A program made the translations under genes and the position numbers. Positions 12,296-57,623 of a stretch of DNA of 64,000 nucleotides are shown here, in pieces. The notes beneath the pieces are model-generated. The model was not told where the DNA came from and did not search any database. It was given only the letters and a program-made list of their open reading frames with translations. The stretch is taken from positions 6,150,044-6,214,043 of the forward strand of contig NC_057752.1 of the NCBI RefSeq assembly GCF_004010195.1, in the 5' to 3' direction. The DNA is from Chiloscyllium plagiosum. Taxonomy: Eukaryota. The first letter of the stretch is position 1, and each line of letters begins with the position of its first letter.

Positions 12296-12467
12296 CTGCA
12301 GAACAGAGAGAATGAGGAAGCAAGGAGTTGTTAAGCTCATACAAAAGATGCATGGGTGCATGACTGAAAACTTACATAGGGCATCTTGGCACCAGTGTTG
12401 CCTGACAGAGTGCCAAGCAAGTCATGAAACTGATTAAATCCTTTGTGTTTCAACTTAAAAAATCATA

Positions 12468-12689
12468 GTTAAAAATCACGCAACACCAGGTTATAGTCCA
12501 ACAGGTTTAACTGGAAGCACTAGCTTTCGGAGCGCCACTCCTTCATCAGGTGGATGTGTCCACAACCACCTGATGAAGAAGCAGCGCTCCGAAAACTAGT
12601 GCTTCCAGTTAAACCTGCTGGATTATAATCTGGTATTGTGTGATTTTTAACTTTGTACACCCCAGTCCAACACCGGCATCTCTATATCA
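12468..12689. mobile_element. Palindromic Penelope-type insertion, family P2
   Basis: Inverted arms gttaaaaatcac...catcaggtgg / ccacctgatg...tttttaac plus a ~38-nt tail; TSD taaaaaatcata at 12456-12467 and 12690-12701. Confidence 0.85.
12521..12549 (-). ncRNA. Minimal hammerhead ribozyme motif (family P2)
   Basis: cac-CUGAUGA-a-ggagu(ggc)gcucc-GAAA-GC-UA-gug; palindromic AGCU. Confidence 0.62.
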
Positions 12690-12934
12690 TAAAAAATCAT
12701 AAACATCTTGGACCTATAAGCAGCTTGCTGGAATCACTGTCGTGTACAATCTGAATGATGGGGACTGCTGTGGTAGATTTAAGATATATTTGACATACAG
12801 ACCAAGGAAAACACCTGTGCAAGTGTTTTTTTTGAGAAGAGGTTGCTGGATTGTCTTCTCATTATTCAGTGAAACGTATTTCTGGGCATTTCCTATCTGC
12901 AGAGCAAATAAACAAACAACAAAAAGCCACTTAC

Positions 12935-12995
12935 TAGATTCCTGATGTGTAGACAAGTTGCATAGACTGATAAATCTTCAGAAATGGGTGGTATC
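12935..12995 (-). CDS. TNS2: Tensin-2-like C2 exon (G)YHPFLKIYQSMQLVYTSGI(Y)
   Basis: ttacag|GA...CTA|gtaagt, 61 nt, phase 1/2; follows a 26.2-kb intron. Confidence 0.95.
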
Positions 12996-13791
12996 CTGTA
13001 ATTAAGCAGAAATCCATTCATTTCCATGTGGTCAAACAAAGTCAACATTTCGACTTCAAAGAAAAGCAGAACAATCAACAGATAGGAAAGAATTTGGGGT
13101 AATTCCAGAGGCTACTGCACAAAACACAAGGGAGAGGATATGAGGGACTCTGCTCACCCTGACTTGACACACATTAGCCTGGGGTTGCCAGCTGTCAGAG
13201 TTATTAATGGATGCTTCCCCAGGTAGGAGTGACTATACAAATGTTGTTCAAGATAAAATTCAGACAAACCCATTGCTGACCTTAAGAGTTAATATGGAAC
13301 ACTGGAAGCTCCTCCATTGGTTCCCTCTTCACAGAAGTGGGCCATTCAGCTCAACCAGACTATGCTGGTGCTGTGCTCCACACAAGCCTCATCATCTCAC
13401 TTCATCACCATATCCTTCAATTCATTTCTCTTTTATGTGTTTACCAAGCTTCCCCTTAAATGCATCTTTGCTATTCACCTCAACCATTCCCTATAGGACT
13501 TCCACACAGTCATCATTCTGTGGCTAAACAGGCTTCTCCTGAATTCCCTGTTGGATTTATTTAGCGACTATTTTAATATTGATATTGACCTGGTCTGGTC
13601 TCATGCAAAGCTGGAAACATCTTCTCTATGTCCACCCTTTTAAACCCTTTCACAATCTTAAAGGCCTCTGTTAGGTCACTGCTCAGTCTTCTCCTTTCTA
13701 GACAAAAAAAGCCCTAGCTCAGTTGAAACTCTTATCCATGCCTTTGGTACCTCTAAACATGCACCTCTGGATCACCTCTCATATTCCATTC

Positions 13792-14021
13792 GGAGAAAGT
13801 GAGGACTGCAGATGCTGGAAATCAGAGCCGAAGTGTGGTGCTGGAAAAACACAGCTGGTCAGGCAGCATCCGAGGAGCAGGAGAGTCAACACTTCAGGCA
13901 TAAGCCCTTCATTAGGAATGAGGCCTCATTCCTAATGAAGGGCTTATGCCCAAAACATTGACTCCCCTGCTCCTTGGATGCTGCTTGACCAGTTGTGTTT
14001 TTCCAGTGCCACACTATTCAA
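13792..14021. mobile_element. Palindromic Penelope-type insertion, family P1 (decayed)
   Basis: Inverted repeat centred on gaatgaggcctcattc (~13916-13931); near-TSD ctctcatattccattc / ctctcatcttccatcc. Confidence 0.8.
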
Positions 14022-14552
14022 CTCTCATCTTCCATCCTCAATACATTGACATCTGCTTGACAAGCTGCCAAAATCTGCTGTACACCAAAAGCAGGACAAA
14101 TCCAACTTGGCCAATACTTCATCAGTCTATTCTCAATCATCAGTAAAGTGATGGAAGTTGTTATCAACAGTGCTATCAAGAAACACATGCTTAGCAATAA
14201 CCTACTCACTGATGCTCAGTTTGGGTTCCACCAGGGCCATTCAAGTCCTGACCTTATTACAGTCTTAGTCCAAACATAGACAAAAGAGCTGAATTCCAGA
14301 TGTGAGGTGAGAGAGGGAGCCCTTGACTTCATAGTGTTATCAGGGAAAGAGTTCCAGCATTTTTGCCTCAGTGACCCTGAAGGAATTGTAATGTAGTTCC
14401 AAGTCAGAATGGTGAGTAACTTGGAGGAGAACTTGCAGGTGGTGGTATTCCTATCCATTTGCTGTCCTTGACCTTTAAATGGAGGAGGTCACAGATTTGG
14501 AAGATGCTGTGAAAGGAAAGTTGGTGAGTTGCTGCATTGCATCTTGTAGATG

Positions 14553-14753
14553 TGATTTGGAGGTGCCAGTGTTGGACTGGGGTGGACAAAATTAAAAATC
14601 ATGCAACACCAGGTTATAGTCCAACTGGTTTATTTGGAAGCACTAGATTTCAGAGCACTGATCCTTCATCTGATGAAGGAGCAGTGCTCCAAAAGCTAGT
14701 ACGTCCAAATAAACTGGTTGGACTATAATCTGGTGTTATGTGATTTTTAATTT
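14553..14753. mobile_element. Palindromic Penelope-type insertion, family P2
   Basis: Arms meet at cttcatctgatgaag; TSD catcttgtagatg at 14540-14552 and 14754-14766. Confidence 0.85.
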
Positions 14754-15069
14754 CATCTTGTAGATGGTAGACAATGCTGCTACTTTTTGTAGTGGCAGTG
14801 ACTGTTTAAGGTGGTGAAAGTGGTGGCAATCAAGTGCGCCACTTTGTCCTAGATGATGTCAGGTTTCTTGAGTGTTGTTGGAGCAGTGGGGAGTATTCCT
14901 CACACTCCTGACTTTTGCCTTGTCGATGGTGAACAGACTTTGAGGAGACAGAAAGTGAGTTGTTCACCACAGAACTCCTAGCCTCTGACCTACTCTTGCA
15001 GCAACAATACAGTCCAGTTGAGTTTCTGCTCAATGGTAATCTGCAGGATGTTGACAGTAGCAGATTCAG

Positions 15070-15516
15070 TTGAAACTTTATTGCTGGAACAGCACAGCAG
15101 GTCAGGCAGCATCCAGGGAACAGGAGATTCGACGTTTCGGGCACAGGCCCTTCCTCAGGAATGAGCAGAGAGTGTTCAGCAGGAGAAGATAAAAGGTAGG
15201 GAGGAGGGACTTGGAGGAGGGGAGTTGGAAATGTGATAGGTGGAAAGAGGTCAAGGTGAGGGTGATAGGTCGGAGTAGGATGGAGGCGGAGAGGTCAAGA
15301 AGAAGACTGCAGGTCAGGAAGGCGGTGCCGGGCTGGAGGGATCCGGCTGAGACAAGGTGGGGGGAGGGGGGATGAAGAAACTGGTGAAGTCCAAGAGGAA
15401 GGGCCTGTGCCCGAAACGTCGAATCTCCTGTTCCCTGGATGCTGCCTGACCTGCTGTGCTGTTCCAGCAATAAAGTTTCAACTTTGATCTCCAGCATCTG
15501 CAGACCTCACTTTCTC
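15070..15516. mobile_element. Penelope-type insertion, family P1 (young): inverted termini around a 3' region
   Basis: Perfectly complementary arms; the inner minus strand reads ..DFTSF (GIY-YIG ORF end) followed by a pyrimidine-rich 3'UTR; TSD cagtagcagattcag at 15055-15069 and 15517-15531. Confidence 0.88.
15131..15158 (-). ncRNA. Minimal type-I hammerhead ribozyme motif (Penelope-associated)
   Basis: auuc-CUGAGGA-a-gggc(cugu)gccc-GAAA-CG-UC-gaau: full core, 4-bp stems I and II, palindromic ACGU in place of stem III. Confidence 0.75.
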
Positions 15517-18500
15517 CAGTAGCAGATTCAGCAATGGCAACGTCACTGAACATTGAGAGGAGAAAGTTAGGATTCTCATCTATTGGAGATGGTTATTACA
15601 TGATACCTGTGTGGTGAGAACATTACTTTCTTCCCTAAACCTTTTCACTTTTCTATCCCCCTTTCAAACCTTGCTTAAAATAGCCTGTTTGATCAAGCTT
15701 TAGATCATCTGTCCCTAACGTCTCCTTTCTTGGCTCAGGACCAAGTTCTGTTTGATAATTGTCCCTGCGAAGCACCCTTGGTACATTAATGGTGCTATAT
15801 AAATGCAAGTTGTTGTTGTTGGCTGAGATGACGGTATGGGCTCTTGCAACTTTCTGGAGTTCAGAGAGAAGAACATCAGCCAGACTTCCCTTTCTTTGAG
15901 ACAAGCCAACCACATGCTACAAGTTTGGGCTTAACAAGTCAGCCTCACTCACCCTGTACGATGGTCAAAAAGCACACTGACACTCATTGCAAAGTTAACA
16001 TAGGCAATCAGTCAATTGTATGAGGAACCAATGGAGTCAGTGTCTTTAGCAGAGAGCTAATGGAAAAGAATGTGAAGAGGTGGGGCGTGGGATGAAATTT
16101 GCAAACAAGCAGATTAAATATGAATAAATACAATTAGAACAAAATTGTTCAGGTCAGAGTCTGGGAAAATGGAAAATCCTTATTGTATGTTGTTTTTGGA
16201 CAGGGAGAACTTTACCCATGGGCTGTGTAACTAAGAGGTTAACTGCATCAAGAGCAAAATGTGAGTGAAACATTAAACACACAAAGTCTGCCTGTAGTCC
16301 AACAAATGATGTGATAACTGCTGGAGTAAATGTTTGCACAGGTCCAAAGCCAAAACAAGAACCATTTGAAACTTTGATTTGGAAGGAATGTTGGCCTAGA
16401 AGAAATGGGTCGAATGGCTTCCTGCTTTATTGTAATGACTCTATGAGGATTGAAAGGAGTAAGTGCAGGATGCTCCTCAGTGCAATAGTTCACATGCATT
16501 CCCATTATCGAGGCCATATGACTGACAATCCTGTTTTCAGTTTTACTTACATCTAACCCAGCAAGTTGCTTTACAATTTGTGAGTATATTTCAGTCCTTT
16601 AAGAGGAAATTTTAGAAGTTCAGGAGAGAGGAAAACGTGAAGCAACAGTGACTTTGTGGGTTAGCTATGTTTACATGGTGATGGCTATCCTTTGATTTCC
16701 TTATGGAGTCGAACAGAAATCTTTCACGAGTGAAACTGACAACTACAGATGGAACCTCATTGGCATCTGAGCAACATGGTATATGGCGAGATTAGTGGTA
16801 GAATCGGATAAGACATCCAATGAGACCTGTCTCAATGTCAGGAGCATCTTGCTGCATTTTTTATGCTTTTGATGAGTGGTGAGATTAGTTTCTTGCTAGG
16901 CAGCAGTGAGTTGCTAATTAAGGTAGTTTGTAGTTTGTTAAACACCTTGTTAATGGCACAATTCGCCTCATTAATATTGAGCTTCTGTATCTTACCAAAT
17001 CTGCCAAACAAGCTAGATGTCAAGAAATCTTGATATGGAAGTCACAGTGGGTACCTGATGGCTTCAGCTCATTGCTGGCTGTGAGCCTTCATGTTGCTCA
17101 GCATTAAATAGCATCTCAGGGTTTGATCCATAGGCACCAGCCACGCGCACCCCTTGTCCAGAGACATTGCATCTGACATTTGCCACCCTTTGTGATTGTC
17201 ATGCCACCTCACTGATATGCTTGCAGGATGCTTAAGAAGCATGGGCCCACATTGCAGGGTGCACTGGCAACTAGTATTGAAAGGCTACGGCAAGTACACT
17301 TTGTACACAAGGACAGGCACTTCGCTCACAGACTGGACAGGTTGCATCTCATGGCTGCACATTTGTTTCTTTTTTAATGCTTGCTTGCTTGGTGCCTACC
17401 TGCAAGCTCGCATTATCCAGGCGATGTCTTGCCAATTAGCACAGTCACATAGCCAGGCAGCTTGCTTTGCTGTCAGCAGTCCTCAGTCAAAGGGGTGTGT
17501 ACACCAGTGTGTTGCATCGATCACACACCTGCACATTTGCCAGCAACGTATGTGGCAAACTCACACTATGTGCAGCAAACATATCTGAAGTCTTAGGACA
17601 ATAGTCGACACTGAAGTCCATGGAGGCACCCATCAGTCAGGGAGTTCGAGCAAAGTACATTAAAGACAGTCACCAATACTTGTCAAGCAACTGATTGAGG
17701 TGTTCCTGGTCAGATAATCTCTGCTTCTGCAGTGCGGGGAATGGGTCTCAATGTGTGGCTCCATAGCAACCAGTCTGGGGGTTAGGCCAGGCTGAATTTC
17801 AAGCCACCAGTCAGGGAACTGGGCATTTTTTGTCTGGGGCTCTCTGGTCAGGTTGATCAAGGCAGTGGGTCATGGTCAGTGTGATGGATGGATCCACAGA
17901 AACCAAGGGAAGGGATGTCGGGGGAGGAAAGGGCGATTGCTATTACAGGCTTGAGACTTGGGAACCTAATCTTTGGGATTGGGGCTGCAGAATTTTGTTT
18001 TAGGAGAGGGGGTGAGGGAGAATGACAATTGTGAAAGGGACAACAGTATTAGCAAGGGTGGGAATATGATATAGTTGAGGTGGGGGGTCATGAGTATCCG
18101 CCTTGGGACGGGACATTGTATGAACCACATGGGGCACGATTACCTCATTGGCTATGGGGGCTTGGGGGCAGGGAGTTAGCAGAGGTGAGCTGGCGAAGAC
18201 TCATGTGGATAGAGTGGGTGGGGACTTTGGGAGATCACAGGAAAATCTATGAAGAAAGGGATTTGAAAGTTGATGACCTCACAGACACACAAATGTGGAG
18301 GCTGGAAGCCACTGGCAGAGGTGTACTCACTAGCGCCTTCCATTGTGCTGGAAATCAAAAGTGTGCAATGGGACCACACCCGAAGTGGGCATGGTAAGTG
18401 ACTCGGCCTGTGAGGGAGGGGACTGCAGTACCTACCAATGTCAGGGCCCCTTAGAGGCTAATAAAATTATACACAGCATAGGACACACAGACCTATAAGT

Positions 18501-19859
18501 CCACAATCTCTTGGCCATCCTAGTGCATTGCTCCCTGTTTGCCAGGTACCCTTAGACATCACTGACCACTTCATTCACACCAACACCTTTGGACACAGAG
18601 GCCAGGCAAAGAATAGGGACATTACAGTATGAGGGGCAATTGTCTCAGCAATTGCTGGTTCCTCTTGCTTCCACATGTTGCAGCAGGGCCTCAACACAGA
18701 CATCAATTCATCGTACATCATGTGTGAGCATGGCGTTAGGCATCATGCTGGCACAGTTACATTCAAGAATATTATAGAAAGTCAAAATAACAGATACAAG
18801 GTCCAACCAGGGTTCTTTATAGACACATGACAAATAATGTACCATGCATTGTCACCTGTGTCACCAAAGTTCCATCAATAGGTTTCCTTCTTTCTCTCTT
18901 CCCAATATGTCTCAGTGTAGTCCCTGGTTAAACAGCTGGGGTGGAGCCTGTTGGCCCTGGAGGTTTGGTTGGGTGACCCTGGGGGCGTTTGAGTCTGGAC
19001 AGCCCTGACATGCTAAGGGTCCTCTTGGCAGAGGCTGCAACTTCCAAGGGTTGAAGGAGGTAAGACAGGATGGAGGTGAAGGGTCCAGCCACCTCTGGAC
19101 TTCTTTGAGTGGTACCTGTGTATGGTTGCTCCGCTGGCTAGGTGCCATCTGGCACTGCCCTGTCTCAATTGAGGAAGTGTGTGTGAGCCTGCTTCCCCAC
19201 CCTGTTGCCATGCTTTCAGCCCTGATGACCATTAGCTGTAGTGATGGGAGGGCAGGTTTGTGCATCCCTCCAGCAGACTCTGAGGGTTTTGAACCTGGTT
19301 CTGATCGGCAGAATCCAAACTGTCCAGAGGCAACCAGATGCTCATATAACTCACTTGCTCAGCCTTGTGGCAAGAGTCCTTTCAAAAAACTCAAAGCAGT
19401 TCCCACTTAGCCAAAAAAAGTAAGATTCAGTCTACATTTTGTTAATTTATTGCCCTTGGGGAATCATTACCAGCCATTGCATAGGATATCCAGAATTTGG
19501 CCTATGTCAGTGTTATTTTTCCTTCACCTACAGCTTGGGCATTGCTGACAAGTCCAGCATTTGTTTCCCATCCTAGTTGTCCTTAAGAAGATGGTGATGA
19601 GCCACTCTCTTGGATTCAACAGCCAAGAGTCAAACACAATGTTCTGAGTCTAGAGTCACATGTAGGTGAGACTGGGCAGGGACAGCAAACTTCCTTCACG
19701 TATGTTTTTAAAACCAGATATGTTTTTAACAATAATCCAGTCATTTCAAGAAATTGGGAAAATTCATCAGTTTCACTTTCAATTTCTATCCTTTCTCACT
19801 TTCACCTGGTCCATTTCTGACTCTTCACTTGCCTGCCTTGACTTCATTGTTTCCATTTC

Positions 19860-21325
19860 TCAGGATAAGGTATCCATCAATATCCATTAAAAACTCATCG
19901 ACTCCACCACCTCACACCCTGCTTTCTGTGAGGACTCCATTCCATTCTCCCAGTTTCTCCATTGCCACTGTGTCTGTTCTGATGCTGCCACCTTCTACTG
20001 GGCTGCCTCGGACACATCCTCTTTCTTTCCTTCAACCAAGCAACTCCCTGGCATTGTGGTTGACAGGGCCTTCCATTGTGTCCAAACCATCTGCCCTCAC
20101 CTGTTTACCTCCTTCCCAGAACACTTGTCCTTACTTTTCACCCGACCAGTTTCCACATTCAAAGGATCATCACCACTATTTCCACCACCTCCAAACACAT
20201 CTTCCCCTCCCCTCCATGATTAGAATTCTTCAGGGACCATTCGTGGGTGGCACGGTGGCACAGTGGTTAGCACTGCTGCCTCACAGCGCCTGAGACCCGG
20301 GTTCAATTCCCGCCTCAGGCGACTGACTGTGTGGAGTTTGCACGTTCTCCCCGTGTCTGCGTGGGTTTCCTCCGGGTGCTCCGGTTTCCTCCCACAATCC
20401 AAAGATGTGCAGGTCAGGTGAATTGGCCATGTTAAATTGCCCGTAGTGTTAGATAAGGGGTAAATGTAGGGGTATGGGTGGGTTGCGCTTCGGCGGGTCG
20501 GTGTGGACTTGTTGGGCCGAAGGGCCTGTTTCCACACTGTAATGTAATCTAATCATTCCCTCTTTAACACTCTGGCCCACTCCTCCATCACTCCTAATGA
20601 TTCCTCACTCCTCCGTGGCACTTTTCCATGTAATTGCAGAAGGTGTAACACATGCCCATTCACCACCTCCCTCCATGGCCCCAAACACACCTTCCAAATT
20701 TGTACTTCTTTCAATCTAGTCTATTGCATTCCCTGCTTACTATGTGGTGTCCTTTATGTCGCTAGACCAAACGCAGACTGGGTAAATGCTTTGTGGACCA
20801 CCTCCATTCTGTCTGTAGGAATGGCCCCAGCCTCCCAGCTGCTTCCTATTTCAATAAACCACCTTGCTCTCAAGCTAACATTTCTGTCCTGGCCCTGCTA
20901 CCATGTTCCTACGAAGCACAGCGCAAGCTCAACGAACAACATGTCATTTTCCACTTGGGCACTTCACAGCCTGGAAGGGTCAATGTTGAATTCAATACCT
21001 TCAGAAACTGACTACATTATGTCTGTTTGCCATTTTTCTTAGTCTCTTTTCCCCCCCATTTTCCCCCACAGTCATTTTGTGTTTACTTTGCGCTTAGTAG
21101 CAAAGACTCATTCTCTCCCCTTCATGTCTTAATCTACATCCTTTTTACATCTCTTTCTTTTCTTTCTCCACCACTGATAACCTCTCTGTCTTTTGCACTG
21201 GGCCTCTATACCATTTGCCCTCCTGCTTTGCCTCTGCCTCTATCAATGTATAAAAAAGAACTTATTTTCCAACACCTCTCAATCCTGAAACAGTCATACC
21301 AGACTTGAAATGTTAATTCCATTTC
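19860..21325 (+). mobile_element. Penelope-like element 3' remnant (RT end, zinc knuckle, GIY-YIG endonuclease, 3'UTR), interrupted by an HE1 SINE
   Basis: GTFPCNCRRCNTCP; CTSFNLVYCIPCLLCGVLYV; RKLNEQHVIFHLGTSQPGRVNVEF (ORF 20793-21011); decayed hammerhead-like end near 21285-21315. Confidence 0.85.
20243..20554 (+). mobile_element. HE1-type V-SINE, full length, young (CpG-rich)
   Basis: ggcacggtggcacagtggttagc...ggttcaattcc...gggcctgtttccacactgtaatgtaatctaat. Confidence 0.92.
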
Positions 21326-23571
21326 TCCCCAAAGATGCAAACAACAGGGCCTTGTGCATTAACATATGTAGTTTCCAGTACACATAAGTGCACCATACTG
21401 CAAGCCCAAACAACAATCCTAAAATGGTTGCAAGCATGACTCTTCAATACACTCAAGTTTATCTCATAAATGTTGGCCAATTGCAGAATCACATCTAATG
21501 TTAAGACACTACATTGCGAGTTTTGCAAGGGCAGGCTGGTTGGACATGGTCAGGACCCATTTGTTGTGAACAGCTGAAGTTACACGTGATTTGCTACAAT
21601 CAGCCAATGTTTAGGATGAAAGGCTTAGGTATCTGGCATCACAGCAGCACTTAAATTCATATACCAGATTGCTCATTTGTGAGACAGACAGAATGTCTTT
21701 TTCCTGGACAGCAGCATCCTGTCAATGGTGAACACCATTCATGTTCCGACTGTACTTCACCTGTTGCTCAAAACTTTGAGATACTTTACCGAAGTAGACT
21801 GGATACTTTTCCAGACCAAGAGTGACTGCCTTATGACTTTTCATAAGTTTGCACAACCTACAGCAAGAAGTGCCCTGATCAGGGGAACCATTAGTCAACA
21901 GGGTGGCTTTGATCTGCCCTATTTCAGCATCAAGCTTGCACAGTGAACAAATGGCTCGGGCCCTATTTATGAGGTTGCCACTAAGGTCAATCTTATCGTG
22001 TATTCAACTGTAGGAATCCCAATGTGTACACCGATCAGTGAAGGTTGATTGGCAGTTTGAGTAGTACTCAGCCCCTGGCCGATTTCTCAAGTAGGACATC
22101 AAGGAAGGGGAATTCATTTAAACTGATCCATTTCAAATGTGGATTTGATGCTGGATGGAACATATAAATTCTTACGTGCAGCTGTAGATGCTAGTGTAGC
22201 AAATGTATCATATACATATTGGAAGTATGCAAAGGGTCTGAGGCAGATTTGGCAGTTAACTGTTAATCAGCAATAACCAAACCACACTTCTATTATTCAG
22301 AGTTCACTTGTCAACCAATCAGCATTTTCCTCTCATGCAGTACAAATGTTGGTTTCTCCCCCTTGAAATGGTATTCTTGCAAATTGTCTTGATAAATGCA
22401 AGACAAAAATATTCATTACAATGTACCTTTCCTCAGCAATATTTGAATCTGAATTCCCCCATGTGCCATAGTGGGATCTGAATTCCTGTACCTCTTACTT
22501 TCTAGTCCAGTAACATAACCACGATGCTAAGATATCATTACTGCAACAGCAAGCACACTTCAAAACAGTAATTAATTGGTAATAAAGTACTTCGGGACAT
22601 TATGAGGTTTTGAAAGGCACCATAAAATGCAAATCTTTGACACGTATGTGGATTTGGGACAGATCGCCATGGCAACTTGCCTTCATTCCTGAGGCTCAAC
22701 TGCACAAATCAGAGTGTTTGCAGGGAAATTCTAATTCCAGATTGCAGAGGCTGATTTAGATCACACCCTGATCACACTCTGATGAATATCAGGTCGAAAG
22801 TGAAAGCTGGGCCTGTTTGGTATCCAGCTGAGAATTTAGATTCCAGACAAACATACAGCTGTTTCATGGCCCCACTGAATCTCTCTGCTGCTGGATCAGT
22901 GTGAAGAGTTCAGCTATTTCCTGATCTAATTACTTGCGAAGTGGCTTGGGCCGATGTTAACACTGGCTGGGGCAAGGAGTCTCATTTGCCTCCCTGCTGT
23001 ACACTTTTGGCCTGCTGGCATGTTTTCACAGGAGTTTGATACTACACTCTACACACTCTGACTATGGGAGAGACAACTGTAAACAGCGGAGACATTGAAT
23101 TCAGACAAAATATCAAATACTTCAATAGAATTGCACAGACCTTATAAAAAATAAAATAAAATTGAGAATCCTTGGGGATGGGAAATAAGAGAGAAAGTGA
23201 GCTAAAGCTCTACTTGAACCCAAAATGATACTGAATCTATAATGGCTTATAGTGCAGAAAAAAGCTATTTAGCACTTGGTGAAGTCCTTTGTGCAGTTTT
23301 GGTCTCCTTACACAAAGAAGTATATACATGCTCCACAGAGAGCTCTGAAGGATCACGAGACTGGTTGCTGGGCTGAGGAATGCCTTTGAGAAAGGCTTGA
23401 GTAGGCTCGAAAATGTAGAAGAATGAGAGCTGATCTAGATCAGATATTGAAAAGACATTTCTCCTTGTGGGAGAGCCCAGCACCAAAGGACACAGTGTAA
23501 AAGTAATCAGCTGCCTATTTAAGAGTATTTAGGAGTATTTGTTTTCTCTCAGAAGGTTGAGAGTTTTTAGA

Positions 23572-26500
23572 ATACAGAACATTCCAGCGCAGCACAGCCC
23601 TTTGGCCCTCGATGTTGCATCGACCTGTGAAACCAATCTGAAGCCTATCTAACATACACTATTCCATTTTCATCCATATGTTTATCCAATTACCATTTAA
23701 ATGCCCCTAAAGTTGGTGAGTCTACTACTGTTGCAGGCAGTGCGTCCCACACTCAATTAAGTCACCTCTCAACCTTCTTCTCTCTAACGAAAACAGCCTC
23801 AAGTCCCTCAGCCTTTCCTCCATACCAGGCAACATCCTAGTAAATCTCCTCTAAACTCATTCCAAAGCTTCCACATCTTTCCTATAATGCAGTGACCAGA
23901 ACTGTGTGCAATACTCCAATGCAGCCGCACCAGAGTTTTGCACAGCTGCAACATGACCTCATGGTTCCGAAACTCAATCCCTCTACCAATATCCGCCTAC
24001 CAATAAAAGCTAACACACCATATGCTTTCTTAACAACCCTATCAACCTGGGTGGCAACTTTCAAGGATCTATGTACCTGGACACTGGGATCTCTCTGCTC
24101 ATCTACACTATCAAGAATCTTACCATTAGCCCAGTACTCTGCATTTCTGTTCCTTCTTCCAAGGTAAATCATTTCACACTTATCCACATTAAACCCCATT
24201 TGCCACCTCTCTGCAGCTTATCTATGTCCCTCTGTAACCTGCAACATCCTTCGTCACTATCCACAACTCTACCAACCTGAGTGTCATTCGCAAATTTACT
24301 AACCCATCCTTCTATGCCCTCATCCAGGTCATTTATAAAAATGACAAACAGCAGTAGACCCAAAACAGATCCTTGTGGTACACCATTAAGAACTGAACTC
24401 CAGGATGAACATTTCCCATCAACCACCACCCTCTGTCTTCTTTCAGCTAGCCAATTTCTGATCCAAACCACTAAATCACCGTCAATCCCATGCCTCCGTA
24501 TTTTGTGCAATAGCCTACCGTGGGGAACTTTATCAAACACCTTACTGAAATCCATATACACCACATCAACCACTTTACCCTCATCCACCTGTTTAGTCGC
24601 CTTCTCAAAGAACTCAATAAGGTTTGTGAGCCACAACCTACCCTTCACAAAACCGTGTTGACTATCCCTAATCAACTTATCCCTTTCTAGATGATTAGAA
24701 ATCCTCCAATTCTTTCCAACATTTACCCATGACTGAAGTAAGGCTCACTGGTCTATAATTACCAGGGTTGTCTCTACTCACCTTCTTGAACAAGGGAACA
24801 ACATTTGCTATCCTCCAGTCTTCTGGCACTATTCCTGTAGACAATGATGACATAAAGATCAAAGCCAAAGGCTTGGCAATCTCCTCCCTGGCTTCCCAGC
24901 GAATTATAGGAAAAATCCCATCCGGCCCAGGGACTTATCTATTTTTACACTTTCCAGAATTGCTAACACCTTCTCTTTGTGAACCTTAGTCCCGTTGAAT
25001 CTAGTAGCCTGTATCTCCATGTTTTCTTCAACAACATTGTCTTTCTCTAGTGTGAATGCTGACAAAAAGTATTCATTTAGCACTTCCCCATCTCCTCTGA
25101 CTCCATGTACAACCTTCCACTACTATCCTTGATTGGCCCTAATCTTACTCTAGTCATTCTTTTATTCCTGGTATATCAATAGAAAGTCTTAGGGTTTTCC
25201 TTAATCCTAACCACCAACGACTTCTCATATCCCCATGTGGCTCTTCTTTGCTCTCTCTTTAGCTCTCTTTCTCTGGCTAACTTGTAACTCTCAAGCACCC
25301 TAACTGAGTCATCACATCTCATCCTAACATAAGCCTTCTTCTTCCTCTTGACAAGAGATTCTACTTCCTTAGTAAACTACAGCTCCCGTGCTCGACAACT
25401 TCCTCCCTGCCTGACAGTACATACTTGTAAAGGATCCGCAGTAGCTATTTTAGTCATAGAGATGTACAGCATGGAAACAGACCCTTCGGTCCAACCCGTC
25501 CATGCCGACCAGATATCCCAACCCAATCTAGTCCCACCTGCCAGCACTCGGCCCATATCCCTCCAAACCCTTCCTATTCATATACCCATCCAAATACCTC
25601 TTAAATGTTGCAATTGTACCAGCCTCCACTACTTCCTCTGGCAGCTCACTCCATACACGTACCACCCTCTGCGTGAAAAAGTTGCCCCTTAGGTCTCTTT
25701 TATATCTTTCCCCTCTCACCCTTAAACTATGCCCTCTAGTTCTGGACTCCCCGATCCCAGGGAAAAGACTTTGTCCAATAATCCTATCCATGCCCCTCAT
25801 AATTTTGTAAACCTCTATAAGGTCACCCCTCAGCTGCCGACGCTCCAGGGAAAACAGCCCCAGCCTGTTCAGCCTCTCCCTGTAGCTCAGATGCTCTAAC
25901 CCTGTCAACATCCTTGTAGATCTTCTCTGAACCCTTTCAAGTTTCACAACATCTTTCCGATAGGAAGGAGACCAGAATTGCACGCAATATTCCAACAGTG
26001 GCCTGACCAATGTCCTGTACAGCCGCAACATGACCTCCCAAACTCCTATACTCAATACTCTGACCAATAAAGGAAAGCATACCAAACGCCTTCTTCACTA
26101 TCGTATCTACCTGTGACTCCATGTTCAAGGAGCTATGAATCTGCACTGCAAGGTCTCTTTGTTCAGCAACAGTCCCTAGTGTATAAGTCCTGCTAAGATT
26201 TGCTTTCCCAAAATGCAGCACCTCACATTTATCTGAATTAAACTCCATCTGTCACTTCTCAGCCCATTGGCCCATCTGGTCCAGATCCTGTTGTAATCTG
26301 AGGTAATCCTCTTCACTGTCCACTACACCTCCAATTATTCCTTGAATAAGCTCCACATTTCAATTGTGTCCATCCCCTGCAGTTTCCCTCCCCATCCTAT
26401 GCATCCTAAATCTTGCCTGATCACATTGTAATTACCTTTCCCCCAGCTATAACTCTTGTCCTGCGGTATATACCTATCCCTTTCCATCGCTAAAGTAAAC

Positions 26501-26637
26501 ATAACCGATTGTGGTCACTATCACCAAAGTGCTCACCTACCTCCAAATCCAGCACCTGGCCTGGTTCATTACCCAGTACCAAATCCAATGTGGCCTCGCC
26601 TCTTGTTGGCCTGCCTACATACTGTGTCAGGATGCCC
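23572..26637 (-). mobile_element. CR1 LINE ORF2 ~2.2-kb fragment (subfamily A), inserted in an older plus-strand CR1 and containing a nested CR1
   Basis: ORF 24169-24675: SQHGFVKGR, YMDFSKVFDKVPH, GVPQGSVLG, SKFAND; host CR1 at ~23220-23570 resumes at ~26638-26830. Confidence 0.9.
25450..26335 (-). mobile_element. Nested young CR1 3' fragment
   Basis: ORF 25528-26085: LYRTLVRPLLEYCVQFWSP...LRGDLIEVYKIM; same tail as 546-1440. Confidence 0.92.
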
Positions 26638-28412
26638 TTTTGGAATTCTTCTCCCCAGAGAGCAGTGTAGGCAGTGTCATTGAAAATTTTTTAAAGCAGA
26701 GGTAGATGGATTCTTGGCTAACAAGGGAGTCAAAGGGTCTCCAGGCAGGCAATAAAGTGCAGTTGATCCAAAATCAGATTAGCCATGATTTTATTCAATT
26801 GTGGAGGGGCCAAATGGCCAATTTCTGCTCCAAATCCCTAACGTTTTATGTTTGCAAAGTACATTCCCAGGCTGGGGAGGCTGGAACTCAGGGTTACAGT
26901 CTCAAAATAAGGGGTCAGCATTTAGGATTAAGATGAGGAGAAATTTCTTCACTCAGAGAATTGTGCAGCTTTAGAGTTCTTTACCCCCGAGGGTTGTGGA
27001 TGCTCAATCATTAGGTACATACATGTCAGAGAGTGATAGATGTTTGGACACTAAGGAATATGGGGACAATGAAGGAACATGGAGTGGAAGTAGTTGATCA
27101 GCCAACAACAATAAACTAATATAACCTAAGAATCTAACAGCCGAATGTCAATTCAGCTCGCAAATTCAGTTCAGCCGTGGACAGAGTGTGTGCATTGCCT
27201 GCATAAGAAAGTATCTAAATCTTTAATTTGTGCAAAACTAATTTAGCTAAATTTAGATTGTAATTTGGAGTTGGCACTGAAATAAAATTTGTAGCTTAAA
27301 ATTCTGTAGTCATAAGCTTTAAGCAGGTTTATATCCAAATGATGCAGTGAAAGAGCAGCCTAAGTAAGAAACAGCCGAGTGAGATAGGGGCTTTGTGTTG
27401 GGAGCATACATCAGTAGTCAAATTAGTATGACTTAGCAGTTGAGTGTGATTTATGCTAGAGTGCTGGTGTTCAGCGGAGAAAGGAGAGACGTGTTTGGTC
27501 GCTTTTGCTTAACAAAGTAGCAGATTGGTAAGTAGAAGTGATGAGTATTTGTCATCTGATTTCAAATCAGCCATGATCTTACTGAACGGCGGAGCAGGTG
27601 CAAAGGGCCAAGTGGCCTATTCTTGTACCTTGTTCATGTGCTCATATGTTCTTTAACCAAAATGTAAGGTCTTTAGTTTGTGTTTTGGTTTCTCGTCTTT
27701 CTTACCCCTTTAAAAATAGCACTAGTATGTAAAATAAGGAAGTAAAAATATAATGAAGTGTTCCGAGTAGAGATTTATCGAAAGTAAAGAGCAGAAATTT
27801 AGAATGATTTTTATTCATAACTGAAATAAAATATGACAGACATGGCAGATTGAGATGATGTGTCACAGCTGCAGTATGTGGGGGCTGCTGGACACGAAGG
27901 TGATCCACCATGAATATCTCAGTAGCGTTTGCAGCTCAAACTTCAGATCCAAATTAAAGAGCTGGAATCCAAGCTGCAGGCATGAGGCTGCATCAGAGAG
28001 GGGAAAGGTTACTTGGAGCTTTGTTCCAGGAGGCAGTCACACTCCTTAGATTATGTACTTTAAACTTGGTTCTGTATTCAAGGACAGGGATTGTGATTGT
28101 GGGTGGAGCAGGTCTGAGAACCCTAGGAGCACCTCTCAACGACCTCTGTCCATGCAATTGTGCAACAGTTATGAGGCTCTTGCAAGTTATGGATGAGAGT
28201 GGGAACTGCAGGAAGGATAAGCAAAGTGACCATGATCCTATGGTACAGGAAGTCATTCAAATGTGGGAGGAAATAGGATTGTAGTTGTGGTATGAGACAG
28301 AAAAATTAAGTGAACACTGTTCTCTGCATTGTGAGTGGGACTCCTGAGGCTGTATTTCCTGCCTGGTGCCACGGGTAGGACATCTGTTCAAGTCTGGAGA
28401 GGAACCTGGATG

Positions 28413-28745
28413 ATCATAACATCCTAACAGTTTGGAAGCAGGCCATTGGCCCATCGAATCCACACTGACCCTCCGAAGAGCATCCCACCCAAACCCACCC
28501 TCGTAACCCTGTATTTACCACGGCTAATCCACCTAGCCTGGACACTATGGGCAATTTAGTTTGGTCAATCTGTTTGACCTGCACATCTTTGGATTGTGGG
28601 AGGAAACCAGAGCACCCGGAGGAAACCCATTCAGACACGGGGAAAATGTGAAAACTCCACACAGTCACCTGGTGCTGGAATCAAACCCGAGTCCCTGGCA
28701 CTGTGAGGCAGGGATACTAACCACTGAGCTACCATGCTACCCATA
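28413..28745 (-). mobile_element. HE1-type V-SINE nested in CR1 ORF1
   Basis: Reverse-complement tRNA head, V-domain and CR1-like tail. Confidence 0.8.
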
Positions 28746-29813
28746 CTGCCATGGGAGAGATCCAGTTGTTATTATCTACATAATAAAAACATTGATAGGA
28801 CTGGAAAGGAGGTTCTGCCAAACTGAAGAGCAGAACCTCCAAAATAATAATCTCAGGACTACCACCAGAGCCACAAGCGAACTGGCACAGAGTAAACAAG
28901 GTGAAGGAGTTAAGTGCATGCCATAAAGAGTGATGTGGCAGGAATGGGTTTCACTTCGTGGGGTACAGGCACCAGTACTGGGGTAGAAAGGAGCTGTTTC
29001 AGTCAGATGGGCTTGACTTGAACCATGCTGAGACCAATATCCTGGTGAATCAAATAATTACAGCTATAGGAGGGCTTTAAATGAATTAGAGGGAGGAGGC
29101 TTTAGGAGAATACGTAGACTTACAAAGTAAGAGGATATTGTCACACTGGAGGGCAACTATTTTAATAATAATAGGCAGAGTGGGACAGGAAAGGCCAGTG
29201 TGTGCAAATATTAAAAAGCAGCAGCAAATAGGGTAAAAGGGGGAGAAAAGAGTAAACAAATCAAATTAATGGCTCTTTAATTAAATGTGCATAGTATTCA
29301 GAATAAATTAAAAGTATTAGTGGCACAAATAGAGGTTAATGGGTATGATGTTGTAGCCATCACAGAGACATGGTTACAAGGAGATCAAAGCTAGAAACTA
29401 AACATTCAGGGATATGTGGCTTTTCAAAATGACAGGAAAAGAGAAAAGGGGGGTGGGTTAGCTTTGTTAGTACGAGATGGAATGAATAGGATAGCAAGAA
29501 ATAATCTATGATGGGATGATGTAGAAAAAATCAAGGGGAAGAAGACACTGGTGGGAGAAGTCTATCGGCTCCTAACTGTAGCTGTTCTGTAGGACAGAGG
29601 ATAAATCAGGAGATAATGAGGGCATATAAAAAAGGCAATACATTAGCCATGGGTGACTTTAATCTTCATATCAATTAAAACAATATTGGGAAAATGAAGA
29701 AGAATTCAGAGATTTTATTTGGGACATTGTCCTAGAACGTTACATTGTGGATCTAACCAGGGACCAGGCTATTTTAGATCTAGCAATGTGTAATGTTGTA
29801 GATTTAATGATCT

Positions 29814-30022
29814 GGGGTTGGTTAGCTTTGTTGGTTGGATGGCTGGTTTGTGATACAGAATGACGCCAATGGTATAGGTTCAGTTCCCGCACTGGCTGAT
29901 ATTATCATGAAGGACTCTCCTTCACAACCTCTCCCCTCACCTGAGACATGGTGACCTACTACCTCTGTCTCTCTCGACAGAGCAGCCCTATGATTCTCAG
30001 GACTCTGGCAACTTTACCTTTA
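29814..30022 (+). mobile_element. Second tRNA-derived SINE family, nested in CR1
   Basis: ggggttggttagct..ttggttgga...ggttcagttccc head; homologous to 54369-54584. Confidence 0.65.
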
Positions 30023-30446
30023 ACTTGAATAAATGATCTCAAAGTAACAGAATAACAGTGACCTGTGCTTAACATGGTAGAATTTAGCATTCAGTTTGCA
30101 AGTGGGATACCTGGGTCAGAAACAACTGTGCTAAACTTAAATTGGGCAATTACATTGGAATGAGGGCAGTGTTGGCTGTGATGGGTTGGGAAAGATGTTT
30201 AGCAGCAAACAGAGTTGAGGAACAATGGCAGACACTTAAGAAAATAATTCATAATGCCCAACAGAAATATCTCCAAGTGAAGAATAAGAAATTTAGGAAA
30301 TAGGATAAACTGACCCAAGTTAACAAAGGAAGTTAAGAATGGTATTAATTTGAAAGAAAAAAGCATACAATGTGGCAAAGAATAGTGGTAAGACAGAGAA
30401 TTGGGAAAGTTTTAGAAGTCAATAAAAGATGACCAAAAATAATAAA

Positions 30447-30655
30447 GTTAAAAATCACACAACACCAGGTTATAGTCCAACAGGTTTATTTGGAAGCACT
30501 AGCTTTCGGAGTGCTGCTCCTTCATCAGGTGGTTGTAGAGCAGAAGATCGTAAGGTCCGAAAGATAGTGCTTCCAAATGAACCTGTTGGACTATAACCTG
30601 GTGTTGTGTGATTTTTAACTTCGTACACCTCAGTCCAACACCGGCACCTCCAAAT
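30447..30655. mobile_element. Palindromic Penelope-type insertion, family P2, nested in CR1
   Basis: Inverted arms plus tail; TSD caaaaataataaa at 30434-30446 and 30656-30668. Confidence 0.85.
30500..30528 (-). ncRNA. Minimal hammerhead ribozyme motif (family P2)
   Basis: cac-CUGAUGA-a-ggag(cagca)cucc-GAAA-GC-UA-gug. Confidence 0.62.
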
Positions 30656-31704
30656 CAAAAATAATAAATGATGAGAAAATAAGCTTTTAAGGGCAAAACT
30701 AGCAAGTAATATAAGTAACAGTAAGAACTCCTTTAAATATATAAAAAGAGAGAAGCCAAAGTGAATAGAGGCCTCCTAGAAAATGAGGCTGGGGAAATAA
30801 TAACATATAGCTAGGAAATGGCAGAGGAGTTGAATAAATACCTTGCATGCTAGAGGACAATAATAGCACCCCAAAATTATTAAATAATCAAGGGTGCGTG
30901 TGTGAATTAAACAGAAAGTACAAGGGTTAAAAGGCCCTAAGTCCCCTGGACCTGATGAGTTGTACCTTAGGATTTTTAGGAAGTACCAACACATCCACTG
31001 GATGCACTGGTAATCATCTTCAAGGAAGCCTTAGATTCTGGAAAAGTCCTAGAGGTTTTGAAAACCACCAATGTAACACACTTATTCAAAAAGGGTGAGA
31101 AACTAAAAGAACAGGAAAGATGCAATAGCAGAGCATTTAGAAATACATAATCCAATCAAGTAAAGATAGCTTCAATTAGGGGGAAATCATGAAAAAAATC
31201 ATTCGAGTGCTTTGAGAAGGTAACAAGTAGGATGGATAAGAAGAAACAGACCATGTAATTTATTTGGATTTCCAAAAGGCACTTGATAAGATCCAACACA
31301 AAAGAGTACTTAATCAGAACCGATTATGTTGAGGGTAGTATATTAACATGGATAGAGGCTTGGCTAACAAATAGAAAACAAAGAGTTGGGATAAGGGGAG
31401 GCATTTTCAGGGTAGCAACCCGTAACAAGTAGAGTGGAATCAATGTTGGGGTCACAATTATTTACAATATATCTGAATGACTTGGGTGAGAAAAGTCAAT
31501 GCATAACAGTCAAGTTTGTGGATGATGCAAAAATTGGTGTGAAGGCAACATAATGAGGATGACATAATGAGTCTGCACAGGGATACAGACAGGTTGACTG
31601 GGTGGGTGAAAATTTCGTAGTTAGAATATAATGTGGAAAAATGTAAGGCTATGCAGTTTGGCAGGAAGAATAGAAGACTGAATATTACTTAAATGGAGAA
31701 AGAC

Positions 31705-33061
31705 CACTGCCAGAACCCCATTGTCATTAGTACAGTCAGGGCTTGGAGGGAAAGGCGTCAGAGTGAGCGTTGTTTATCCAAGACTTCGCTACTTACACCT
31801 ATAGTTGGCATGACAGGGATGATGGACTCAGGGTTCAAACTATGGGCAGCGAGAGGAGTTTCTAGTTTGGGAGACTTGTTTGAGGGGGAGGTTATGATGT
31901 CTTTTGAGCAACTGAGCTGCAAATACGGGTTACCCAGCAGAGATCTTTTCCGTTTTTTTCAGGTTAGGGATTTCATCCAGAAGACGACTACGCTTCTCAC
32001 TAAGCCCTATAAGCCCGATACAGAGAGGTTGTTGCTACGTTCCACAAGCACCCTTTCGGTTAGTGCCCTCTATCGCCTGCTGGGTGGCAGGGCCTGGCAG
32101 GATATTAACCGGTTATGTGAGGTCTGGGAGCAAGAGTTAGGAGTGGAGATCTCTTTTGAAACATGGGAGAACATATGGGAGAATACTCGAAAGATCTCAA
32201 TCTGTAATAGGACATACGCTATGCAGTTAAAAGTTCTGCACAGGGCTCAGCTGGCACCAGACCGTCTGGCGAAGTTTAAAAAAGGGGCATCTTCAGTGTG
32301 CCCCAAATGTAAACTAAGTGTAGGTACTCTTACCCATTGCTTCTGGACATGCCACAGGCTCTGTGTTTACTGGAGCACTGCGGTGAGAGAGATAGGGAGG
32401 GTATTGGGGACTGAAGTCAAAGTAGACCCGATATCTCTCCTCTTAAGTTTACCGAATTTACCATCTTTAGATGGGCATGGGGAGAAACTATTTAATATTC
32501 TTGCATACTGTGCACAGAAGAATATTCTGATGAATTGGGTGTCTGAGAACCTGCTGGGCTTGCTGGGATGGCAGAAATTAATTATGGAGCACATTCCCTT
32601 GGACCTTTTTACAAACATGGTGCACCACACAACAGACAATCTTTAAAGGACATGGCAGCCCTACTTGAGTTATTTGGAAACAGATTTGTCAGTTGTCTTA
32701 ACTAGGGCATTTGTTTAACCAGGATGGTCAGATTTGTCAAGCCCTGGGCCCTGGAGGGGGTCTCCTGAGTTAATACAGGCATATATACAATGCTCCCGTT
32801 CCTCTGTTTGGGAGCTTTGCACTGAGCATAGCTGTTCTGTATTCTGTGTTTTTTTTGATTTTCTTTCTTTTTTTCGGTGTTGCTTTGCACAGTGTTCGGG
32901 TTTGTTTTGTATTAGAGGATAGGTTAATAGGAGACAGTCGTTGTATTGTTTTTGTGTTTGTTTTCTTTTTATTATACTGATATTTGTTATTGATTGTATT
33001 TTTCAATAATTTTATATGTTTGTAAAGTTAAAAAAATTGCTAATAAATATATTTACAAAAA
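31705..33061 (+). mobile_element. 5'-truncated L1-clade LINE (ORF2 C-terminus with CCHC zinc finger, 3'UTR, polyA)
   Basis: SFEQL..KYGLP..DLFRFFQVRDFI and CPKC..GTLTHCFWTC; AATAAA at 33042-33047; A-tail; TSD aaatggagaaagac at 31691-31704 and 33062-33075. Confidence 0.92.
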
Positions 33062-33305
33062 AAATGGAGAAAGACTGCAGAAAGCTATGGAACAGAGGGA
33101 TTTGGGAGCCCTCATGCATGAATCACAAAAAGCTAGCATCCGAGTTTATTAGGAAATAGGGCAAGTGGGATGTTGGCCTTTATTTCAAAGGGAATGGAGT
33201 ATAAAAATGGAGAGAGCTTGCTAAAACTATACAAGGCATGAGTCAGATCACATCTGGAATATGGTAAGCAGTTTTGGTCTCTTTATCCAAGGAAAGATAT
33301 GCTGG

Positions 33306-33390
33306 ATCAAAAACAGAAATACCGGGAGAAACTTAGTAGGTCTGGCAGGATCAGTGGACAGAAAGCAGAATCAACATTTCAGGTCCATTG
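33306..33390 (-). mobile_element. Penelope-type terminal fragment (P1-related, old) nested in CR1
   Basis: aaaaacagaaata..ggagaaactt agtaggtctggcag..gaaagcagaatcaacatttcagg resembles the arm at 51991-52090. Confidence 0.55.
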
Positions 33391-34683
33391 GAGACTGTCC
33401 AGAGACGGTTCACAAGGCTGATACCAGCTTTGGAGGGATTTCCTTCTGAGAAGAGGATGAATAGATTGAGCTTGTACTCATTGGAATTTAAAAGAATGAG
33501 AGGGTTGAAACATTTTATATTCTTAGGGGGACTGACAGGATAGTTGCAGAGAGGTTGTTTCCCTTGTGGGAGAGTCTAGGACCTGAGGGCATCAACTCAT
33601 TGTAAGAGGTTACCCATTTAAGGCAGAGATGAGGAGGCTGGGTCGCTAAGTGCATTCAAAGCTGAGATACATAGATTTTTAATTAGTAAGGGAATCAAGT
33701 GTTACAGGGAAAAAGGTAGGAAAATGGTGTTGAAGATTATCAGATCAGCCATGATCTCAATGAACAACAGAACAGACTCGATGGGCTGAATGGCCTACTT
33801 CTACCCCTATATCGTATGGTCTTCCAACCTGTTCCTATTTTCTATGTTTTTGTACTTAGCCGAACATGTGTTGGTTCTCTGCTGAATCAATACAAAACCA
33901 ATCCTATTGCCCTTAAACCGTGTACTTTGATTTGCTTCAAGGATTAATCCATCAAGAATGTCAACTGATGAATGGCTGAGGACAAAGTTCTTATATGCAA
34001 GAGGTGAAAAGTGAGAGGCCAGTAGTTCGAATTGTGAGAAAGCTGAAGGAACTGTTTCAAGAACTGGAAGCATTGGGATTTTTGCTGCCTCACTGAAGGG
34101 CAAGAAGGTGATTCAGAAAGTGCCCTGGGAAAGGAAGGGAGGGGGCAAGATCTGCAGATGTGGGATTGGAAATAAGTGGAAGCTTGTCGAGAGCAAACAG
34201 CAGTAAAACGATGGTAAATGTTTCATACTGCAGTGAGTTGACCCTGCTGTGAGCTTTGCTGGCCTGTTAAGGGAAAATAAGAAAAGAATTTTCCAAAGTT
34301 CAGGAGGTCATGAGATTGAAACAGTTCTCGTGAGCTGAATAAACACAGCAGCAAGCAGCTGAAGATTTGATAACATGGTAGATTTAAATGCAGAACAACT
34401 TCCTGTTTTCCAGAATATATGCATATTGACACTGTAAAGCACTACTGACAACACAGAAAGTGGTCTGAATTTCTTACCTTAGGACAGTTTGGTGGCAGTG
34501 GTCTTCTGGTATGTGTTAAAGTGGACAGTATTTAAATCTCAAGGATTGTGCTGAGCCCCATCCACATTACTATATCACTGAGAGGTTACTTAAGGGCTGC
34601 TGAAATGTTGTCATATGAGGAGAAATCTTCTCATGCTACAAAGGACTTGAAGAGATTTGGACTAGACTGTGTGGAATCCGCAA

Positions 34684-34976
34684 AGTTAAAAATCACACAA
34701 CGCCAGGTTATAGTCCAACAGATTTATTTGGAAGCACTAGCTTTTGGAGCACTGCTGCTTCATCAGGTGGTTGTGGAGTATAAGATCGTAGGACACAGAA
34801 TTTATATTATCTTTGCTATAAATTCTGTGTCCTATGATCGGAGACTCCACAACCATCTGATGAAGGAGCAGCACTCCGAAAGCTTGTGCTTCCAAATAAA
34901 CCTGTCGGACTGTAACCTGGTGTTGTATGATTTTTAACTTTGTACACCCCAGTCCAACACTGGCACCTCCAAATCA
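34684..34976. mobile_element. Palindromic Penelope-type insertion, family P2 (~125-bp arms)
   Basis: Arms extend to gacacagaatttata / tataaattctgtgtc; TSD tggaatcc(g/a)caa at 34672-34683 and 34977-34988; plus-strand CTGATGA..GAAAGCTT at 34857-34885. Confidence 0.85.
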
Positions 34977-35799
34977 TGGAATCCACAAGTAACTCATCAG
35001 AGTTTAATACTTTTCACATCATTTTTCTTCTTCACAAACTCACCAAACTGGCATCTCTGCTTCCAGTAAGCCCACTCCCAGGAGGATGTCAGTATCTACA
35101 GTACGGTCAGCAGCTGCTGGGGGTGGGGGCAAGAGGAGGAGCCATTTGGAGTCTCTCCTTCCTCTTAACAGAAGTGACATCCTGCAGCTTCCACTTGGCT
35201 CCCTTTCCACGACTGGGACTCAGTTAGACAGGAATTCAACCCGTGCTGTACCTCACTCCATGACTCTGACAAATAAGAGCCAGCTAAGAGCTGTTCTGCT
35301 CAACGAAGGGGTATGAACCCCAATGAGTTTATTCAACATATGCCATTATTTCCCAACCTTGTCACAAATTGCCCTTGCTCTTGTCCAGTCAAACTCTCAT
35401 TGCTCAATTCCTGCACACTGCTCAAACTCAAAACTACAGGTGGCAGTGCAGTGGCATGAGCAGAGCTTCCCAGGGTTCACGCTTGTGATATTGCCATGCG
35501 TAGTCAATGTATCCTTGCTTGGGATTGGAAAAAGATTCGCTGATGACAGTTTCAGGAAAGGGAGAACCTGGCTCCTCCCCCAAACTGTGACAAAATGGCA
35601 GCCTGGAGACAAGCACTTCAGTCAGTGCCCATTTACACTTGCCAACATTGTCACCCAAAATAGGAAATAAAATCCTCTCATGAAGGCCTGTGGACAGCAG
35701 CCTTTGCAGGATGCATTCTTGGAATGAGAAGATTGCTGGCAACCTGAGGATTTTTAAATCATTCTTGTTGCCCCTGAGGTGGTGAACTGTGCCATGTTA

Positions 35800-57498: not shown

Positions 57499-57623
57499 GG
57501 AGAAAGTGAGGACTGCAGATGCTGGAGATCAGAGTCGAAGAGTGTGGCGCTGGAAAAGCACAGCAGGTCAGGCAGCATCTGAGGAGCAGGAGAGTCGAGC
57601 TTTTGGGCATAAGCCCTTCATCA
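57499..57623 (-). mobile_element. Penelope-type solo arm, family P1
   Basis: ggagaaagtgaggactgcagatgctggagatc...gggcataagcccttcatca. Confidence 0.78.

Follow-up and report, generated by a model that had tools for sequence, protein, structure and literature searches.

How can a short palindrome that carries a hammerhead ribozyme motif come to be inserted four times in a single stretch of a genome? The stretch in question is 64,000 nt of Chiloscyllium plagiosum DNA (contig NC_057752.1, positions 6,150,044 to 6,214,043; the window refers to this stretch as a whole), in which a preliminary description had recognized two hammerhead-bearing families, P1 and P2, and had called P2, our subject here, a palindrome family. 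In our analysis the four P2 inserts look like insertion products rather than palindromes copied as a unit. It is very probable, we think, that P2 is the 3' end piece, or pseudo-long terminal repeat (pLTR), of an endonuclease-bearing Penelope-like retrotransposon (PLE), and that the palindrome is made at each insertion; the parent element was probably of the Neptune type. The anatomy of the inserts, their target-site duplications (TSDs), their differing centres, the abundance of the family, the clustering of its junctions and the CpG decay in its ribozyme core were computed here.

The inserts, which we call c1 to c4, occupy 12468-12689, 14553-14753, 30447-30655 and 34684-34976, and BLAST of the window detected them as its sole P2 copies. 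All four have the arrangement first described for them, an arm and an inverted arm with a tail. The arms stand head to head around a centre that is different in each insert, and the tail of 36-38 nt is found on one side only, outside the inverted repeat and inside the TSD. c1, c3 and c4 lie on the plus strand: c1 consists of an inverted arm, a sense arm and a tail of about 38 nt, c3 of a long inverted arm, a sense arm that starts from inside helix II of the hammerhead and a tail of about 36 nt, and c4, the longest copy, has arms that extend about 40 nt upstream of the ribozyme core and a 37-nt tail at 34940-34976. c2 is in the opposite orientation (minus strand), with its 36-nt tail at 14553-14588. 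The arms of c1, c2 and c4 measure 82-126 nt and are 85-88% complementary, and those of c3 measure 66 nt and are 97% complementary. Counted relative to C3 of the hammerhead, the two arms start at about -9/-11 in c1, at 0/+2 in c2, at -27/+19 in c3, and at -40/-40 or further in c4. Both arms of c1 have a private 2-nt change in common, and both arms of c2 a private 1-nt change.

The TSDs of 12-13 bp that had been proposed are present as well. In c1, 12456-12467 is an exact 12-bp direct repeat of 12690-12701. The 13-bp repeats of c2 (14540-14552 on the tail side, 14754-14766 on the inverted-arm side) and of c3 (30434-30446, whose first 2 letters are compatible with the tail too, and 30656-30668) are also exact, and the 12-bp repeats of c4 (34672-34683 and 34977-34988) have one mismatch (11/12, of which 8 are exact), the first letters of the right one being compatible with run-on sequence of the element too. 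As a chance control, 3000 pairs of windows of about these sizes were drawn at random, and 0.2% of them had an exact direct repeat of at least 12 bp. It is to be noted that the 13-bp TSD of c2 is itself a near-perfect palindrome.

Published PLE insertions have an inverted, 5'-truncated copy and a tail of 30-40 bp at one end (PMC8557442, PMC3846280, PMC8969392), and work on the anole element attributed the tail to two reverse transcriptase (RT) start sites inside the RNA and found that cleavage favoured AT-rich DNA (PMC11167929). The P2 inserts share this layout in their inverted truncated copy, 36-38 nt tail and AT-rich targets, and resemble insertions of endonuclease-bearing PLEs in their head-to-head inverted pLTR, one-sided tail, TSD and 5' truncation (PMC3846280, PMC8557442, PMC11167929). 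Their TSDs of 12-13 bp differ from those of 8-10 bp in the rotifer PLEs of the same articles, and, unlike published PLE insertions, a whole P2 insert is 200-290 bp long and without an open reading frame (ORF), and the family is very abundant.

How would such an insert be made? The GIY-YIG nuclease of the element would make a staggered cut in AT-rich DNA, giving the TSD of 12-13 bp, and the RT would start at two internal positions of the RNA that are separated by about 37 nt, so that one arm would be made with the tail and the other without it; the enzyme and the two start sites, and likewise the dimer cleavage to be discussed below, are inferred from published PLE work. Synthesis of both copies would end prematurely, in most cases close to where the hammerhead begins, and the two would then be joined head to head. 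The palindrome would be created per insertion and would decay afterwards. Private changes shared by the two arms of c1 and of c2 are what is expected if each insert had one template, and together with the differing arm starts they fit a head-to-head joining of two short copies made from the same template.

Is the hammerhead in these arms a real one? The window was searched with a minimal-hammerhead descriptor (a core of CUGANGA, GAAA and UH with helices I and II), and 200 dinucleotide shuffles of the window served as control. Five matches were found, three in P2 (12549 minus, 30528 minus and 34857 plus) and two in P1, all five with a palindromic helix III; the shuffles gave a mean of 0.015 matches, none of them palindromic. 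The intact P2 motifs are in the inverted arm of c1 (12518-12552, minus; C3 at 12549, AGCU at 12525-12522, predicted cut after 12521), in the inverted arm of c3 (30497-30531, minus; C3 at 30528, AGCU at 30504-30501) and in the sense arm of c4 (34854-34888, plus; C3 at 34857, AGCU at 34881-34884, predicted cut after 34885). P2 arms have an extra A after A9, then GGAG/CUCC with a G10.1-C11.1 pair; helix I is of 3 bp and helix II of 4-5 bp, and the AGCU palindrome (15.2-16.2) is in 3/3 intact arms. The class of minimal hammerheads (min-HHR) was defined by Cervera and De la Pena in 2014 by a palindromic 15.2-16.2 and weak cleavage as a dimer (PMC4209133), and P2 shows all four diagnostic traits listed there; the core boxes, the nucleotide added after A9, the G10.1-C11.1 pair and the 4-nt palindromic helix III are common to both. 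Palindromic stem III in hammerheads of repeats is also treated in PMC3088659. Rfam at its gathering thresholds gave no match for P2. Judged from its sequence, P2 carries a genuine minimal hammerhead of type I, like those of PLEs, whose cleavage activity itself is modelled.

The motif, its AGCU and the site CUA are thus as the preliminary description had them, except that the whole motif is kept in only 3/8 P2 arms and that the plus-strand site of c4 (34857) is CUU instead. Point changes damaged it in the plus arm of c1 and the minus arm of c4, and the arm is cut at or inside the core in the plus arm of c3 and in both arms of c2, which therefore has no intact ribozyme.

To see P2 beyond the window, four public runs, three of contigs and one of RNA, were compared with the c4 sense arm and tail (34812-35040) at 80% likeness. 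Matching contigs numbered 57,712 in run X1 and 55,426 in run X10, which bears another organism code. Depth summed over X1, which is not copy number, has a peak of 5.4 million on the arm vs 4-22 on the unique flank, and this points to a very large P2 family. At 34976, 34977 and 34978 there are 830, 1315 and 1030 loose ends in X1, which run into mixed AT-rich DNA (agreement 0.36), and a junction cluster at 34976-34979 is repeated in the three contig runs. X1 depth is 70-79 thousand upstream of 34836 vs 1.3-2.1 million over the core, and from this drop the start of most P2 copies is close to the front of the ribozyme. At position 17, A accounts for 82% of X1 depth, which makes CUA the majority site, and among the variant rows listed for public contigs there was none at 34882-34883. 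At the CpG formed by C11.1 and G12, C11.1>T makes up 26% and G12>A 20% of X1 depth, a decay from which genomic P2 copies appear not to be kept active. The consensus of the loose ends after the tail is alike in the three runs and, joined to the c4 letters at 34976-34979, reads ATG-R-CT. As a lead only, this may be the start of an ORF; other PLEs are known in which the tail and the first codons of the ORF overlap (PMC3846280).

Several observations weigh against the PLE origin. The depth drop may partly reflect subfamilies less than 80% alike or private changes of c4, not truncation alone. The P2-linked full-length Penelope ORF that the preliminary description called for was looked for in the window, by pattern scans and by protein searches, all of them weak, and was not found: there is no RT or endonuclease ORF linked to P2 in the window; exact-pattern scans for P2, which are weak searches, gave 0 matches in metagenome or viral contigs; 20-mer scans of contig collections gave 1 and 4 matches, all by chance and confined to the pattern; and a protein search with the alignment of four tail-frame translations gave 31 candidates, none at E 10 or better, which is weak evidence either way. 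No word of the P2 tail frame occurs in any of 144 PLE-like proteins, and a protein search with a decayed RT-thumb frame gave 64 candidates, none of which passed. That frame belongs to a decayed PLE remnant at 19711-21012 (plus), which is interrupted by a repeat at 20244-20554 and comprises an RT thumb, a linker resembling a zinc finger, and a GIY-YIG region. Proteins matched by the remnant are full-length, with RVT_1, weak GIY-YIG matches below the curated cut-off, and a CxxxxCxxC linker; by this linker, a trait described in PMC8557442, the remnant fits Neptune or Nematis. It is followed by a pyrimidine-rich 3' untranslated region (UTR) and a decayed hammerhead at about 21285-21345, but this ORF-linked family is different from P2 (302/500 shuffles scored as high). 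The hammerhead at 21285-21345 aligns not with P1 or P2 but with a short head-to-head palindrome at 51999-52172 (0/500 shuffles as high). Thus the window has a sibling family, of equally short architecture, for which the link to a PLE ORF exists, and P2 is assigned to PLEs by analogy with it. Another inverted pair, 76% complementary and 438 nt apart at 57233-57836, has, as judged by eye, the look of one more hammerhead family, the fourth, which is decayed and whose palindrome is the 6-nt AAGCUU.

Could P2 rather be a non-autonomous retroelement in its own right, whose short RNA is copied by a PLE enzyme acting in trans and whose full-length parent is gone from the genome? Its RNA would start just upstream of the hammerhead, and the inverted arm would still be made at insertion. 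Such a reading would account for the sharp rise of X1 depth at 34844-34867, just before and across the core, and for the missing ORF link, and PLE-derived non-autonomous elements are known (10.64898/2026.07.22.740005). However, c3 and c4 reach 27-40 nt or more upstream with shared sequence, some 4-6% of the depth over the core is still present upstream of 34836, so that longer templates exist, and there is no head-to-tail tandem among the four inserts. We consider a self-standing element unlikely. Non-LTR retrozymes are like P2 in being short non-coding repeats with type I hammerheads related to PLE pLTRs (PMC7229834; 10.64898/2026.07.22.740005), and the 2026 preprint on these tandem elements includes one cartilaginous fish. 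Retrozymes are head-to-tail tandems, whereas P2 inserts are head to head with two ribozymes on opposite strands. P2 as a non-LTR retrozyme was rejected, as 4/4 inserts are head to head and the go-back joint was seen in single contigs only.

If P2 is the end of a PLE, what does its RNA do? The RNA run (X21) consists of raw poly(A)-selected reads, of which about 2 in 100 were examined; it is one run of one sample. An AATAAA lies in the P2 arm of c4 at 34895-34900 (plus), 10 nt downstream of the hammerhead, and family RNA has A-tails behind 34911 (379 reads) and behind 34915 (418 reads), that is, in 797 of the 2,810 matching reads. These sites are 11-15 nt after AATAAA and 26-30 nt after the predicted cut, and the genomic sequence there is not A-rich. 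Most X21 reads are less than 90% alike to c4, so that they come from other copies, possibly from a few host 3' UTRs. No pile-up of X21 read ends was seen at the predicted cut, over which depth is continuous, the 3' product of about 30 nt being too short to appear; the active ribozyme of the anole PLE gave no read-end pile-up at its cut either (PMC11167929). AAUAAA after helix I is also present in the published rows of a turtle and in the second of Xenopus (PMC4209133, Fig. S3), and the pLTR promoter of PLEs is covered in PMC2377424. One might build on this a model in which the P2 end is a conserved two-part switch, where a hammerhead that depends on RNA of the same family and a used poly(A) signal would give family-specific, dose-dependent control of the 3' end. 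As family RNA accumulates, trans-dimers would cut the tails off transcripts of the element, and any host mRNA whose poly(A) site is supplied by a solo P2 copy would likewise lose its tail. The model draws on the 797/2,810 A-tailed reads, on the turtle and Xenopus AAUAAA and on the predicted failure of heterodimers, its cleavage part being predicted, and we hold it to be quite unlikely.

Another idea is that selection has made AGCU vs ACGU a code by which dimer cleavage is confined to members of one family. P2 had been described as without visible similarity to P1 outside the hammerhead motif, and shuffle tests agree: the local similarity between them was equalled by 34, 152 and 36 of 300 shuffles in the three comparisons made. 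The preliminary description also read the differing stems of the two families as covariation supporting a real RNA structure. A real minimal hammerhead is what we find, but P1 and P2 are not alignable, so that their differing stems are class-level agreement and not statistical covariation, and class-level stem agreement with compensatory changes among min-HHR families was in print in 2014 (PMC4209133). Within P2, 34854 C>T and 34888 G>A reach 27% and 30% in minus-mate RNA reads and 5% and 16% in X1; these changes are not phased, and the possible helix I compensatory pair is therefore not counted as covariation. Loose ends that read AGTTAC before C3 (34851-34856) likewise hint that helix I differs in some subfamily of P2.

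In the established model of the double hammerhead, a strand passes by way of helix III into the opposite junction, and both helices I are intermolecular. Specificity would therefore come from helix I as well as from the palindrome. For constrained double hammerheads, the secondary-structure energies were -10.4 to -12.5 kcal/mol with P2/P2 (three pairs), -13.4 and -14.3 kcal/mol with P1/P1 (two pairs) and +3.5 to +3.6 kcal/mol with P1/P2 (three pairs), the heterodimer values being inflated by lone pairs. Of the 4 helix III pairs, 2 are lost in the heterodimer, and its helices I also fail (2 of 4 and 1 of 4 pairs). P1/P2 heterodimers are thus predicted not to adopt the active fold, which is the part of the proposed palindrome-specific cleavage that holds in the model; with helix I mismatched too, the predicted specificity would follow from general divergence, and the palindrome would not be its sole cause. 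ACGU is common to 29/56 published motifs including within-genome pairs, and hence is no family barcode on its own; two ACGU families are found in each of six genomes (PMC4209133). Even for P2/P2 the active dimer is not the predicted minimum (an alternative fold has -24.1 vs -12.5 kcal/mol), in line with low activity in vitro (PMC4209133) and with protein-assisted cleavage (PMC11167929), and ribozyme mutants of the anole element left insertion in vitro unaffected (PMC11167929). Although the homodimer and heterodimer energies favour it, a selected code is very unlikely.

In the PLE reading, by comparison, this would be an ordinary minimal PLE hammerhead, whose cutting needs two copies on the same strand, as in tandem parent elements, and probably help from protein. 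In the inserts it would merely be carried along, hidden within a long hairpin whichever strand is transcribed. RNA that reads through the inserts is predicted to form long hairpins of -121 to -213 kcal/mol, with a helix II probability of 0.0 in 4 of 8 read-through strands, those where the motif pattern was found, and the ribozyme is accordingly modelled as buried. Whichever strand is read, transcription reaches the antisense arm first and the ribozyme arm second, so that co-transcriptional folding would not rescue the ribozyme. For isolated P2 ribozymes (30497-30531 minus, 34854-34888 plus) a competing hairpin is predicted in which helix II pairs with the 3' strand of helix I (about -9 kcal/mol), and P1 has a different predicted hairpin that hides the same strand. 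Two P1 inserts (15068-15518 and 43924-44141) are young, with 100% complementary arms and near-identical sequence, and the former has 238 nt of other DNA between its arms. Arm identity of inserts could date insertions, as in LTR pairs.

A MITE-like DNA transposon, with the arms as terminal inverted repeats and the hammerhead incidental, would explain the long inverted arms, the absence of an ORF and the flanking direct repeats, but deserves hardly any probability, as the tail lies between inverted repeat and TSD, the centres vary per copy and the motif is far above chance; it was rejected for want of inverted repeats at both termini and of a fixed internal structure.

How new, then, is P2? AGCU beside ACGU in one genome is already in print: Fig. 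S3 of PMC4209133 has two AGCU and two ACGU rows for S. mansoni and two ACGU rows each for Clonorchis, Ixodes, Lottia, sea urchin and Xenopus, and, counted by eye, AGCU in 5/56 and ACGU in 29/56 rows. That article also reports many families per genome with compensatory changes, and motif pairs on opposite strands 100-700 bp apart; its dimer model is restated in a review (PMC6765202). P2 and min-HHR are alike in their requirement for a dimer (modelled for P2), in many families per genome and in mostly solo truncated copies. The closest likeness is the row of Chrysemys picta bellii in the same figure, with AGCU and a downstream stretch bearing AAUAAA; by eye, 20/23 letters are the same as in P2 from G12 onward, with one 2-nt gap, and its site is CUU vs the majority CUA of P2. 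The 3-bp helix I and the helix II of 4-5 bp also set P2 apart. This row has no asterisk for PLE association, which should be added to the points counted above against a PLE origin. The figure has no shark row. In the literature searched, from which Lunse et al. (RNA Biol 14:1499) was outside the scope, there was no description of the P2 family and no cross-family cleavage test. P2 is a new example of the published AGCU-palindrome kind of hammerhead, not a new system.

As to their setting, the introns that harbour the P2 inserts belong to a minus-strand gene of the tensin type, with a PTEN_C2 exon at 7225-7590. Further motifs, which we take to be those of tensin, are at about 4981, 12252, 12984, 39279, 46618 and 48032 (minus), and c1 is in a short intron between exons near 12250 and 12980.

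What does P2 mean for this family of elements? One abundant family is added to a published class, and AGCU minimal hammerheads like that of the turtle are present in this genome too. That a poly(A) site in use lies beside the ribozyme is relevant to the function of PLE hammerheads. A genome with several ribozyme families that differ in helices I and III also provides material for a test of cross-cleavage.

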